Made by a program: the position numbers and the translations under genes. A model generated the notes under the pieces. The model was not told the DNA's origin and made no database searches. It worked only from the letters and a program-made list of their open reading frames with translations. Positions 18,445-63,099 of a stretch of DNA of 64,000 bases are shown here, in pieces; positions within the stretch are counted from its first letter, which is position 1, and each line of letters opens with the position of its first letter. The DNA lies in the NCBI GenBank assembly GCA_030390025.1, contig JASTWF010000048.1:310001-374000 (forward strand). Direction: 5' to 3'. This DNA comes from Squalus acanthias (Eukaryota).

Positions 18445-18463
18445 GGGACAGCAGAGGGCGCTC
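18445..18463 (+). promoter_or_regulatory. Putative CTCF-binding element downstream of V4 (one of about 12, see findings)
   Basis: GGGACAGCAGAGGGCGCTC versus CTCF consensus TGGCCASYAGRKGGCRSYR. Confidence 0.6.
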
Positions 18464-18534
18464 TATGACCATAAAACACATCTGATGCAAGAACATAGTT
18501 AAATAGGAACACAGAAGCAGGAGAGCGTCTTAAA

Positions 18535-18960
18535 GGTCGAGTCTGTCATACAGGAACAGGAGGAGGTCATTCAGCACTCCTCGAGTCTGTTACACAGGAA
18601 CAGGAGGAAGCGATTCATCCCTCCTCGAGTCTGTTACAAAGGAACAGGAGGAGGTCATTCATCCTTCCTCGAGTCTAATACACAGGTACAGGAGGAAGCG
18701 ATTCGTCCCTCCTCCAGTCGATTACACAGGAACAGGAAGCGGCCATTCAGCCCTCCTCGAGTCTGTTACACAGGAACAGGAGGAAGAGATTCATCCCTCC
18801 TCGAGTCTGTTACACAGGAACAGGAGGAGGCCATTCTGCACTCCTCGAGTCTGTTACACAGGAACAGGAGGAAGATATTCATCCCTCCTCGAGTCTATTA
18901 CACAGGAACAGGAGGAGGTCATTAACCGCTCGACCCTGTTACGTAGGCGCATAGGAACAG
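18535..18960. repeat. ~41-bp minisatellite CTCGAGTCTGTTACACAGGAACAGGAGGAGGCCATTCAGCCCTC
   Basis: About 10 tandem units; resembles the reverse complement of the CR1/HER1 3' tail. Confidence 0.9.
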
Positions 18961-20726
18961 GAGTAAGCCATTTAGCCCCTTGAGCCTGTTCCGCTATTCA
19001 TAGAGTTCATGGCTGCACTGTTACCTAGCTCCATATACCCGCCTTTTCCCCATATCTCTTAACAACTTTGTTTAACAGAAATCTATCAAGCTCAGATTTA
19101 AAATGAACAGTTGACCGAGAATCAACCGAACATTGTGGAAGAGAGTTTAAACTTCTGCCACACTTTGCGTGTAGAAGTGTTTGCTAACTTCACGCCTGAA
19201 TGGTTTCGCCATGTCCCCTTGTTCTAGACTCCCGAACCAGCAGAAGTAGTTTCTCTCTATCCACCCTATCAGTTCCCAGTAATATCTTGAAATCTTCCAT
19301 CAAATCACCCTTTAACCTTCTAAAGTCCAGGGAATACAACCCCAGTTTGTGTAATCTCTCATCGTAACTTAACCCTTGATGTCCAGGTATCATTCCGGTA
19401 AATCCTAAGGTGTCGTACCCACAACTGAACACAGTGCTCCTGTTGTGGTCTAACCAGCGCTTTGTAAAGCGGTATCATAACTTCTACTCCCTTGTATTCT
19501 CGTCATCTAGTTATAAAGCCCAGAATTGCATTAGCCTTTTTGATAATGATCTGCACCTGTCCATGACATTTTAATGATCTATGTACATGGAGCACTGAGT
19601 CTCTTTGGACCTCTATTGTTTCTAGCTTATGGCCATTTAGAAAGTTCTCTGATCATTCCTTTTCCCGTCCAAAGTGGATGACCTCACACTTACATACATT
19701 GAAATCCATTTGCCACAGTTTTGCCCACTCGCTGAATCACCCTTTGTAATTTAATGCTGACTCTACTCTGTTTATCATGTTGCCTATTGTCATTGGCAAC
19801 GTTGGATATGTGGCTCTCTATCCCATCATCTAAGTCGTTAATAAATACGGTAAATATTGGAGGACTCAACACAAATCCAGGTGGGAAAGCACTAGTCACA
19901 TGATACCAATTAGAATACCTGCTCATTCTCTGTACTCTCTGTCTCCTGACGCTCAGCCAATTTTATAATCAGGTCAATAATTTACCTTCAATTCGAAGTC
20001 CTTCAACTTTCGCTAACAATCTCTTAAAAGGAATAATATGGGGCCATTTAGCCCATGGAGCCTGTTACACATGAACAGGAGGAGGCCATTCAGCCCTCGA
20101 GCTTGTTACACAAGTACAGTAGTTGGCCCATTCAGCTTTGCGACCCTTTTAAATAGGAACAGGAGGAGGTCACTTAGCCGGTAGAACCTGTTACATTGGA
20201 ATAAGAAGAGACCCCTGCAGCCACACAAGCCTATTACATAAGAACAGGAGGAGGTCCATTCAGTCACTCGACCTTGTTGCATAGGAAGAGGCGGAGGCCA
20301 TTTCGCCCCACGAGACTTTTACACATGGCTAGGTCACGTTTGCAACTTTCTGCTCCCATTAACTCTGCATTCTGCAAATCAGAGAGGGAGGGCTGGAGCG
20401 GCCAATCAGAGAGGGAGGGCCAGAGAATTCTATATTCAGTCTTTTCTTCTGTATGATAGAGATCGTTGCCAGTTCCGGGCCTTGCACACAACAGTCTCAG
20501 AGCTCGAATCGCTGACCAAGTACATTGATTCTAATTGGTTCGACTAGAGAAGGAGGCGTGTCCAACCCTGCTTCACCTCCTTATGCTCTTCATGCTCAAT
20601 TATTTGACAATTCCGGTGAGACGGTGACGTCGAAGACGCCTACCCGCCTCCAACACCTAACCAATCGGCGCAATTTTGTGAGAAGGGTTCCCGACTGAAT
20701 CAGGAGCAGCGAAGGAGCGGAGGGGG

Positions 20727-20799
20727 ATGGATGTGCGGGGCTGTGGGACCGCGTGTCTCTCACTCCTGCTCCGCTGTCTGAGTCTGGAGATCAGCTCTG
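20727..20799 (+). pseudogene. Orphan family-D leader exon; V exon deleted
   Basis: MDVRGCGTACLSLLLRCLSLEISS+G|GTCAGA followed by GA tract 20838-21460. Confidence 0.8.
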
Positions 20800-20837
20800 G
20801 TCAGAGCAAATTTACCTTTCAATTCAGTTTGTTTTAA

Positions 20838-59829: not shown

Positions 59830-60347
59830 ATGTATCTGTTACTGGGTCTGATTATCTTGTTTCACAGTAAGGGACTTTTTCAAACATTAATTCTTGTCAA
59901 TAACCTTTTTATACGTTTTTAATTTCTTTCTTTTTTCTCTTTCTTTCCTGCTTTCTTTCTCTCTTTCTTACTTTCATTCTTTCATTTTTTCATTCTACAT
60001 TGCCCTGTATATCCCCGTTTACTGAATTCCTTCTCTCCCTCTCTTTCCCAGATGTGAACTCCCAGAGTATCCACCAGACTCCCGCCGCTGTCTCCAGATT
60101 TCCCGGGGATGAAGTGGAGCTGAAGTGCAAAGTGGTTGGCGACAGTAACCCTAATATTTACTGGTACAGAAAATACCCGGGGAAGGAGCCGCAGTTCATG
60201 TTTTACTCCATGGGTACCAATCACGTGAATCCAGAGGGGACGGTGTATGGATTCACCGCCGAGCGACCGAATAACTACGAGTTCAAGCTGAAGTCCTCCA
60301 ATCTGCGGGCGAATCACTCGGCCGTGTATTACTGCGCCTGGAGTCTT
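59830..60347 (+). CDS. TRBV: TCR V segment V17, family B (TRBV30-like), intact
   Basis: Leader 59830-59866 MYLLLGLIILFH+A|GTAAG; V exon 60052-60347 ..YYCAWSL. Confidence 0.92.
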
Positions 60348-60386
60348 CACAGTGACTCAGAGAGATGGAGGAGCTCAACAAAAACC
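60348..60386 (+). other. 23-RSS of V17
   Basis: CACAGTG + 23 nt + ACAAAAACC. Confidence 0.97.
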
Positions 60387-62196
60387 CCAAAGGCAGCAGG
60401 AAACACCTGTGGATGATGAAACCGCGCGGTGCTGTTGGGTTTATTTTGCAGAGTGAACGTGTTTCTGACAACAAGAAGAGACGGGTTAGAATTAGAGTGA
60501 GAGATTAGATATAGAGGCACTGGAGAATGTGTAAATAAAGATTAACAAGAATAATGAGAGAATTGATTGTTTTATAACATCAGGAAATAATGAACAGGCT
60601 CGGGCTGTTTTGTCTAGAAAAGAGAAGTCTGAGGGGTGACCTGACAGAGATCTTTAAACATTATCAATGGGTTTGATAGGTTAGGCGTAGTGAAGAAAGA
60701 TAGAAAGAAAGGAAGATAGCAAGAATAAAAGGAAGAAAGATAGGAAGAAAGGGGTAATAAATAAAAGAAGAAGGAAATTAATAAATAATGAAATAACGAA
60801 ATAATGAAAAAAGAAAGGAATGAAGCAGGGAAGAAAAACGTGAAGGAAAGAAAGATGGTGAAACGAAAGAATGATAGAAAGACAGAACGATAGTAAAGAA
60901 AAATAGAGCGAAATATAGAAAGAAGGAAAGCAAGTAAAAATCCTTTTTTATACACTGACATTGTGCTTTATTTCTCCACAGGGACAGTAGAGGGCGCTGT
61001 AGACCATGAAACTCACCAGTGCCTGGAACATGGTTCAATCGGAACACTGGAACAAGAGGAGGTCATTCAGCCCCATGAGCCTCTTACACAGGAACAGGAG
61101 GAGGCCATTCAGCCCCACGAGCCTCTTACACAGGAACGGGAGGAGGCCATTCATCCACTTGCGTCTGCTCTGCCTTTCAATATTTAATTCAACCTCATTA
61201 ACCCGCCTTTGCAGCATATCCCTTGATATCTTAACCCAACATGAATCGATCCAACTCAGCCTTGCGAGCTCCAATTGTCCCCCAGCATCCGCAGCCTTTT
61301 GGGGGCGAGAGTTCCATATTTCAAAAGGGAATTGGATAAATACTCGAAGGAGCAAAACTGCAGGGACATGGGGAAAGAGCGGGGGAGTGGGACTAACTGG
61401 ATTGTTCTTCGAAAAAGCCAGCGCAGACTCGATGGGCCGAATGACATCCTTCTGTGCAAAGCAATTCGATAACTGAATGATTTTTTTCAAAATACATAAA
61501 GTCTCAACAGCCGGATTTTTTTTGCAGTACTGAGGGTCATTAAGGGCACCTAGTAAATTATTTCCTCTTCCATTTGGCTCTATATCTGTGGTCATTCATG
61601 TTCCAGCTCAGCGACTGTTACCTCTGATGTGGAATAGGTTAACTGCAGTCTGAATACAGTGGGGCCGTTTGCAAGTTCCCCAGTCAAGGGCGAGTCTTTG
61701 AGTCCTCCTGATCGTCACAGGCCCAACCATGCAATATAACAGATGAACAGCCCGATGTGACCCGGATATTGTTGCCCCGACTGCCTCTTGTTATCAAAAG
61801 GGTTTCCTTTAGACCAGTGTTGTTCATATGTTAGCCATTAGGCCATTCACATGTGGCTAACTTGGGATACAGCTGTTGATAACTGGGAATCCAGATGAGG
61901 CTAATTGGGAATCCAAATTTGCATCAATGCTTTTCTGATTCGTAAATAAACAATGAGAAACAGACACCGTGGTTGGGAATATTAACGGCATCAGATCCAG
62001 TCAGCCATTGACAATTGGCAACCATATTGGTTCTGATTAGTTCGATTGGGTAAGGGGCGTGTCCAACGCTACATCACTTCCTCACGCTCTTCATATTTTC
62101 CTCAATGATTTGAAAAGAGCGGGTTCGCTCCTCACAAGACACAACTCTCCTGTTCTCGCTCCTTTCATTATTAAGAGAAAAAACTTCCAGTAAAAG

Positions 62197-62749
62197 ATAT
62201 ATCTGTTCCTGGGTCTAATGATCTTGTTTCACCGTAAGGGACATTTTCAAACTTTAATTCTTGTCANNNNNNNNNNNNNNNNNNNNNNNNNNNNNNNNNN
62301 NNNNNNNNNNNNNNNNNNNNNNNNNNNNNNNNNNNNNNNNNNNNNNNNNNNNNNNNNNNNNNNNNNNNNNNNNNNNNNNNNNNNNNNNNNNNNNNNNNNN
62401 NNNNNNNNNNNNTCCCTGTTAACTGAATTCCTCCTCTCTTCTCTGTTTCCTAGATGTGAACTCGCAGAGTATCCGCCAGACTCCCGCTGCCGTCTCAAAA
62501 TTGTCTGTGGAGGGAGTGGAACTGAAGTGCAAAGTGGAGGGCACCAGTACTGCCAACATCTACTGGTACAGACAATACCCGGGGAAGGAGCCGCAGTTCA
62601 TGTTTTATTCCACGGGTACCAATCACGTGAATCCAGCGGGGACGGTGGACGGTTTTACCGCCGAGCGATCGAATGACTACGAGTTCAACCTGAAGTCCTC
62701 CAGCCTGCGGTTGAATTAGTCGGCCGTGTATTACTGCGCCTGGAGTCTT
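62197..62749 (+). pseudogene. TRBV: TCR V pseudogene V18, family B
   Basis: Leader start ATG changed to ATA (62197); exon 62454-62749 with TAG at 62717-62719; perfect RSS at 62750-62788. Confidence 0.9.
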
Positions 62750-63099
62750 CACAGTGACTCAGAGAGATGGAGGAGCTCAACAAAAACCCATGAGTCGCAG
62801 GAAACACCTGTGGCAGATGAAATTGCGCAGTGCTGGGACCTGTTGTTTTATTTTTACAATGCTAACCTCTTTATGGCAATAACAATAGACAGGTTAGTAT
62901 AATAGAGAGATTAGATGTGACACTGGAGAAGGTACGAAGAAAGATTACCAAGGATGACACCAGAACTGAGAGGTTGTAACTATCTGCAAATAATAAAAAT
63001 AAAAAGTATTGGGATTTTATACACGAACAATGTGCTTTCTTTCTCCACAGGGACAGCAGAGGGCGCTCTAGGATCACAAAAGACTCAGTTGCGTGAAAT

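Follow-up and report, generated by a model that had tools for sequence, protein, structure and literature searches.

How distant variable (V) segments of an antigen-receptor locus are brought to its diversity (D), joining (J) and constant (C) segments is a question raised anew by a stretch of 64,000 nucleotides from Squalus acanthias (the window; positions 310,001-374,000 of the 2.278-Mb contig JASTWF010000048.1). It contains eleven copies of a short motif resembling the binding site of CTCF, which lie among the V segments of a T-cell receptor (TCR) beta locus and may either take part in folding this locus or merely have been carried along by duplication of the V segments. Orientation-biased CTCF sites in V regions are established for mouse and human Igh and for mouse Tcrb. 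The element is real and, by the evidence presented here, probably functional, and the locus is probably a variation on this known CTCF architecture. The copies that accompany V segments of family B (family-B elements) are likely to be CTCF-binding sites that would halt cohesin extrusion and thereby help to bring distant V segments to the D-J-C core.

A 15-base core, searched on both strands with at most two mismatches, gave 11 matches in the window, all on the + strand and each three bases past the start listed in Table 1. Shuffled windows contained a mean of 0.14 matches, and none of the 100 shuffles reached 11. The eleven forward-oriented motifs described in an earlier reading of the window, made from the sequence only, were therefore borne out, and equal numbers on the reverse strand were not seen. 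A scoring matrix similar to JASPAR MA0139.1 assigned 16.6-21.3 bits to seven of the copies (p <= 1.2e-6) and merely 10.9-11.6 bits to the other four. Compared with the published consensus, seven copies have one mismatch, two have two and two have more than two. Together with the unrelated motif families and the substitution pattern described below, these seven high-scoring copies support the proposed fit to the CTCF consensus. For eight of the 11 copies, the first base of a family-B heptamer, part of a 23-type recombination signal sequence (23-RSS), lies at a distance of 296-798 bp (about 260-760 bp past the nonamer). The sequence-only reading had placed most copies 0.25-0.8 kb 3' of a family-B RSS or its remnant, which is correct for these eight and for the copy at 40408 behind a V remnant, but not for the copy at 24004, at 1445 bp, or for that at 31034, which has neither V nor RSS. 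Each copy is surrounded by a conserved island of about 70-100 bp with high-copy repeats on either side, as judged from cover depths. By their sequence, the 11 motifs are homologous copies of one ancestral element that was duplicated together with the family-B V segments, in agreement with the co-duplication proposed earlier. Because the copies are homologous, their common strand counts as one event and not as 11. The 11 same-strand copies were thus rejected as independent evidence, since their orientation was inherited by duplication.

The contig was read over 2.064 of its 2.278 Mb, with 1,914,001-2,128,436 (214 kb) lying outside. Matrix scoring, the column and drift tests and the V-intactness test cover 1.864 Mb, and the consensus count, the repeated family count, the arm-block count and the orphan count cover the 2.064 Mb. 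Judged by its segments and their signals, the contig carries a TCR-beta locus of a cartilaginous fish in mirror image, arranged tail to tail. Its left arm (4-952 kb) carries 192 V-like 23-RSSs on the + strand and its right arm (1,105-2,206 kb) 191 on the - strand, and none of them in the 2.064 Mb runs against the direction of its own arm. The hallmarks of TCR beta are present, namely V segments with a 23-RSS, D segments between a 12- and a 23-RSS with a conserved core, and J segments with a 12-RSS and FGxG. The D segments were located by reading the contig after a pattern search for D had given no match. The C exons encode C1-set domains, and shark proteins named TCR beta match the first C at 61-72 % identity. 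PDB searches did not cleanly class the C exons, with antibody chains topping the lists. Both clusters contain a transmembrane exon, which we take to be beta-like from its motif. In the D1 core, 11 of 12 bases are identical to the conserved TRBD sequence given in the available text of PMC11754216. Among arm-to-arm blocks of at least 1.5 kb, 517 are inverted and 5 direct (search floor 85 % identity), and the 15 longest inverted blocks are 86-90 % identical. The arms thus represent old duplicates and not an echo of the assembly, and motifs shared between them owe their strand flip to inheritance. As independent evidence for a CTCF code this flip was rejected, as it is expected from inverted duplication alone.

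The family-B element is specific to this locus. All 69 genome matches of an exact 17-mer fall on JASTWF010000048.1, with 39 on the + strand of the left arm and 30 on the - strand of the right arm, whereas a control 17-mer also matches other contigs. Likewise, the best 40 of 165 candidates in a scored DNA search all lie on this contig (40/40). An origin as a dispersed repeat was rejected on these grounds. A collection based on the flanks only yielded 119 copies of the element, all facing inward, 111 of which are distinct. They are confined to the distal arms, no further in than 692 kb on the left and 1,615 kb on the right, and family-B-like V segments nearer the core do not carry the element. 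Among 17 copies of an orphan subfamily, whose nearest RSS is about 2 kb away or more, 15 score at least 17.5 bits.

The orientation of motif families that are unrelated to each other carries more weight than that of homologous copies. Such families were formed by clustering matrix hits of at least 15 bits in the arms by their flanks. Ten of the 12 families face inward, toward the D-J-C core, and two face outward, one of the latter lying inside a V exon. The same 10:2 split was obtained on 2.064 Mb, with a binomial p of 0.019. None of 390 column-permuted matrices reached ten families in either direction and one gave a difference of 8. Their means of 2.1 families inward and 2.2 outward indicate that there is no strand-composition bias. 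Counted singly, 189 of 200 sites with at least 15 bits face inward. A similar picture emerges for the consensus from the accessible part of PMC6746451, widened at its first base, which has 10,323 matches genome-wide versus 456 for a reversed control (23-fold). On the contig, it has 127 matches in 2.064 Mb, of which 125 face inward, as do all six of their families, and the reversed control has none. This corresponds to a density of 61.5/Mb compared to 2.8/Mb genome-wide (22-fold). The forward orientation code like that of mouse Tcrb and Igh, which the sequence-only reading had suggested, is thus supported via unrelated families.

Alternatively, the sites could act locally, with CTCF or a similar zinc-finger factor insulating a V unit from the next promoter or from nearby repeats without any long-range pairing of V and DJ. 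This is unlikely, even though the orientation follows V transcription as well as the core, conservation reaches about 17 bp beyond the motif on its upstream side, and few convergent partners exist in the core. Insulating roles for some mouse sites away from an RSS are also suggested in the available text of PMC6746451. However, a local insulator needs no fixed direction, while ten of the 12 families share one, and the site is kept where the V segment is gone. In addition, a half-site of another repressor is kept in just 57 of 111 copies compared to 96 of 111 for the right half of the CTCF motif.

The substitution pattern of the family-B element favours a CTCF site over mere inheritance, as far as parsimony and simulation trees built from about 100 bases, which are rough, allow. 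Among the 111 distinct paralogs, the informative columns show 2.6 changes compared to 6.9 in the flanks (p = 0.0005), and change per column falls with information content (rho = -0.56, p = 0.012). At least 15 bits are kept by 60 % of the copies, compared to 27 % under near-flank drift (2 of 1000 simulations). A first simulation with wide flanks (0/1000) was probably inflated by unrelated outer flanks and was therefore set aside in favour of one with near flanks. On average, each of the 95 inferred substitutions costs -1.5 bits, versus -3.3 bits at random columns (0/2000) and -1.9 bits with random target bases (p = 0.014). The CpG of the motif is kept in 104 of 111 copies, and five flanking CpG columns read CG in 17-37 of 111, some of them maybe young CGs. 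Overall, losses of CTCF-critical bases are fewer than expected under drift, the CpG is maintained, and the element outlasts the neighbouring V and RSS.

It is accordingly improbable, more so than a local insulator, that a functionless chance motif of one ancestral V unit was simply multiplied by tandem and inverted duplication. Such a motif would be expected to show homologous copies with an inherited orientation, an overall rate near that of the flanks, a weakened lineage, and no link to the intactness of the V segment, all of which were found. Nevertheless, neutral co-duplication accounts for the orientation and not for the substitution pattern, as substitutions avoid informative columns and favour tolerated bases (simulation p of about 0.002), the motif CpG is retained, and nine further families share the orientation.

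The conserved bases upstream of the motif resemble a splice acceptor with a branch-like word, a pyrimidine tract and an AG, which could mark a non-coding exon in germline transcripts of V segments. In 74 of 111 copies the AG is where an acceptor would have it, so that it is not invariant as in a 3' splice site. It is missing from both candidate places in 30 copies, 21 of which still score at least 15 bits, and with 11 changes the G of the AG is one of the least constant positions, whereas hardly any changes occur in the columns 9-14 bases past the supposed exon start. As the copies also have no common reading frame by eye, this explanation is very improbable. A cryptic or decayed 23-RSS, with a CAC just before the motif (kept in 101 of 119 copies) and an A-rich word 23 bases on, is the least credible explanation, since heptamer and nonamer fall outside the range of working RSSs (median 4.7 bits versus a locus minimum of 10.0 and median of 28.1), 21 % of 1196 background CACAG sites score as well, and the supposed spacer is the most conserved part, although the copy at 63046 passed a loose RSS filter.

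Several observations weigh against the interpretation of the family-B elements as CTCF sites that guide V segments to the core. With regard to the motif itself, 40 % of the copies score below 15 bits, one lineage has decayed to 8-12 bits with the left half of the motif lost, and the fourth base differs from the consensus. Relative to the nearest flanks, the rate of the whole 19-mer is lower by only about 16 % (tree length 5.85 vs 6.93), so that the earlier claim of a core better preserved than its A-rich flanks is true of the informative columns and only modestly of the motif as a whole. The flanks are also not simply divergent and A-rich, as had been stated. They are pyrimidine-rich upstream and fairly conserved, with about 17 pyrimidine-rich bases (window 18428-18444 and paralogs) approaching the motif in conservation. 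No upstream extension of the CTCF motif was seen when the family-B element was inspected for it by eye. Conservation by column, which holds across the family-B paralogs, was significant in two of five other families (p = 0.017 and 0.022) and not in three (0.079, 0.32 and 0.59), and the pooled correlation across these families was not significant (p = 0.20). With regard to the locus, there is no association with V intactness (38/114 vs 14/47, p = 0.71), and strong sites are not commoner behind intact V segments. A strong inward site lies within 2 kb of only 110 of 354 V segments, and only two strong sites were found in the proximal 300 kb of the right arm. Facing the core is inseparable from having the same sense as V transcription. 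Finally, the core contains a single strong reverse site, and no site of at least 13 bits was found at the position of mouse CBE1.

If the family-B elements act as CTCF sites, a mechanism can be derived from mouse Tcrb, whose V-region sites have been shown to anchor or stall cohesin and so to draw V segments to the D-J centre. CTCF would occupy them in thymocytes, and cohesin would stall there and form loops to oppositely oriented sites, either the reverse site at contig 1,049,723 for the left arm or the sites of the other arm. The elements would act on the folding of the whole locus, with capture through proximity, and not by switching on an adjacent RSS. RAG scanning, which the sequence-only reading had inferred, is not supported as stated. 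It is not implied because the distance to the RSS is variable (0.26-0.76 kb rather than about 18 bp), the site persists without an RSS, and every second V segment of the locus runs opposite to the large J cluster in that it belongs to the right arm, from which these 33 J segments are reached only by inversion. According to the available text of PMC10772921, mouse Tcrb does not rely on scanning alone and allows orientation-independent joining.

The reverse sites expected near D-J-C were found in part. The only strong one (contig 1,049,723; 21.3 bits) follows the first C on its 3' side, before the second C is reached, and is convergent with the left arm only. Upstream of D1, there are weak reverse sites of 12.8 and 14.3 bits, and forward candidates for the right arm inside the core score 12.7-14.7 bits. 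About 2.2 kb upstream of each D lies a further site, at contig 958,357 (+, 14.7 bits) for D1 and at 1,101,123 (-, 19.5 bits) for D2, both in the direction of their own arm and facing the opposite arm. Their equal spacing may be due to chance, since the two sites do not align with each other. A TATA-like word within 10 bases after the D1-upstream site makes a candidate germline promoter. A simple repeat of about 21 kb, CT-rich and T-rich, occupies contig 1,028,000-1,049,500 between the C genes and ends beside the strong reverse site.

Mouse Tcrb is the closest known counterpart, as it is a TCR-beta locus with sites among V segments pointing to D-J-C (PMC5859386, PMC10772921; available text of both, also for the following comparisons). 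Its CBE3, a reverse site 3' of the constant gene, corresponds to the shark site at 1,049,723. In the mouse, 18 V sites lie in a single arm, with one additional inverted V, in contrast to 189 inward sites of at least 15 bits in two arms with about 190 V segments each. Reverse sites lie 27 and 3 kb upstream of D in the mouse, where CBE1 faces the V genes, whereas the shark D-upstream sites share the direction of their own arm and face the opposite one. Binding has been shown for the mouse sites and is predicted for the shark sites. Mouse Igh resembles the shark locus in its high density of V-region sites, their strong strand bias, a locus-specific sub-consensus, and the presence of two classes, one at a fixed short distance from the RSS and one far from it. 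The class at about 18 bp does not include the family-B element, which is 0.26-0.76 kb away or without an RSS, and does include the site at window 38359 (17 bp). In mouse Igh, RSS-adjacent sites are D-proximal and far sites distal, whereas both classes occur together in the distal arms of the shark locus. Skate TAD (topologically associating domain) borders (PMC10115646, available text) provide a case from another cartilaginous fish with the same motif and an orientation bias read as a sign of loop extrusion, although the finding concerns fin tissue and domain borders, and antigen-receptor loci are not treated in that text. A literature search found no paper on CTCF at a TCR locus of sharks or other fish and no shark TRB (TCR-beta locus) map, which is weak evidence of absence given its limited coverage.

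The element is older than Squalus acanthias, since contigs from runs coded as four other organisms align on the element island (72, 56, 9 and 1 records) and V pieces of about 85 % identity are present in two of these runs. The cover by these contigs peaks on the motif, a peak to which the edges of the short stretch may contribute. In one other-organism run, the V exons are covered and the motif bin is not, which is no evidence of absence.

Beyond the action of single elements, the mirror layout allows for a two-sided CTCF code, which is possible but doubtful. Arms of about 1 Mb would face inward with left-arm sites convergent with right-arm sites, and the D-upstream sites would face the opposite arm. 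Loops would then dock the more than 190 V segments of the inverted arm on the cluster of 33 J segments, and about half of the repertoire would arise by inversion, which is impossible for linear RAG scanning.

Table 1. Motif copies and V segments in the window (window positions) and segments of the D-J-C core (contig positions, marked as such).
Feature	Position	Strand	Remarks
CTCF-like element, family-B type	18445..18463	+	18.4 bits; 299 bp from RSS heptamer at 18146
CTCF-like element	23357..23375	+	16.6 bits; 798 bp from RSS at 22559
Weaker second copy	24004..24022	+	11.5 bits; duplicated 3' flank without own V; 1445 bp from RSS at 22559
Orphan copy	31034..31052	+	21.3 bits; neither RSS nor V-like sequence within the visible 3 kb before it; lacks the splice-type AG
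Weakened-lineage copy	33136..33154	+	11.6 bits; 447 bp from RSS at 32689
Second, unrelated CTCF-like family	38359..38377	+	19.6 bits; 17 bp past nonamer of a different V family
Orphan copy	40408..40426	+	18.4 bits; behind truncated V remnant 39677-39808 without RSS
Weakened-lineage copy	42623..42641	+	11.6 bits; 477 bp from RSS at 42146
CTCF-like element	54868..54886	+	17.7 bits; 649 bp from RSS at 54219 (V with stop)
Decayed copy	56197..56215	+	10.9 bits; 296 bp from RSS at 55901 (V with stops)
CTCF-like element	60981..60999	+	18.3 bits; 633 bp from RSS at 60348
CTCF-like element	63050..63068	+	18.4 bits; 300 bp from RSS at 62750 (V with stop)
Family-B TRBV exon and 23-RSS	17852..18184	+	intact
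Family-B TRBV exon and 23-RSS	22265..22597	+	intact
Family-B TRBV exon and 23-RSS	32395..32727	+	intact
TRBV exon of another family and 23-RSS	38003..38341	+	carries RSS-adjacent CTCF-like site
Family-B V, 5' half	39677..39808	+	3' half and RSS deleted
Family-B TRBV exon and 23-RSS	41852..42184	+	intact
Family-B V	53925..54257	+	stop codon and weakened nonamer
Family-B V, 23-RSS	55607..55939	+	two stop codons
Family-B TRBV exon and 23-RSS	60054..60386	+	intact
Family-B V, 23-RSS	62456..62788	+	stop codon
D1	contig 960.5 kb	+	
J segments of first cluster, about 33	between D1 and first C exon	+	
First C exon	contig 1,014.6 kb	+	
First transmembrane exon	contig 1,020.4 kb	+	
Second transmembrane exon	contig 1,062.2 kb	-	
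Second C exon	contig 1,073.5 kb	-	
J segments of second cluster, three	between second C and D2	-	
D2	contig 1,098.96 kb	-	

Further features of the locus were observed. The unrelated site at 38359-38377 is near-palindromic, 37 of the 38 members of its family score at least 11 bits, and a third V family has a CTCF-like site at a similarly short distance from its RSS. About 60 V segments at contig 1,105,000-1,400,000, in the proximal right arm, are nearly without strong CTCF-like sites, which is different in the proximal left arm. A symmetric rise of site density away from the core was rejected, as it occurs in the right arm only and the density in the left arm is still 6-9 sites per 100 kb close to the core. 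Promoter-like conserved blocks lie at window 16143-16300, 17511-17600 and 20520-20680, upstream of V leaders and of V-less remnants, and contain words that we presume to be CCAAT-like and CRE-like (cyclic AMP response element).

The second C cluster is possibly an old second TCR-beta isotype. Its C exon has an open frame and is accompanied by its own transmembrane exon, three J segments and a D whose core diverges after 7 bases. The second C is 30-40 % identical to the shark TCR beta proteins retrieved and 35 % identical to the first C domain, and a protein search with it gave no match at E <= 1e-10 among 39 candidates. Its putative assignment to beta rests on its D, J and transmembrane exon. 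Salmonid and pike TRB also comprises two units in opposite orientation on one chromosome (PMC10464911, available text). In salmonids, however, these stand head-to-head with central V genes and near-identical J sets, in contrast to the tail-to-tail shark locus with D-J-C in the center, about 33 versus 3 J segments and C domains of 35 % identity. The word CTCF does not occur in the available text of that paper.

The mirror layout of this locus represents a natural experiment on scanning versus diffusion. Since the arms can be distinguished by sequence (85-90 % identity), repertoire sequencing alone would reveal the frequency of inversional joins across the core. If the two-sided code were true, jawed vertebrates would have assembled TCR-beta genes by CTCF-guided proximity capture since ancient times. 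Should CTCF bind the shark sites, loop-guided choice of V segments would either date to the base of jawed vertebrates or have arisen twice.

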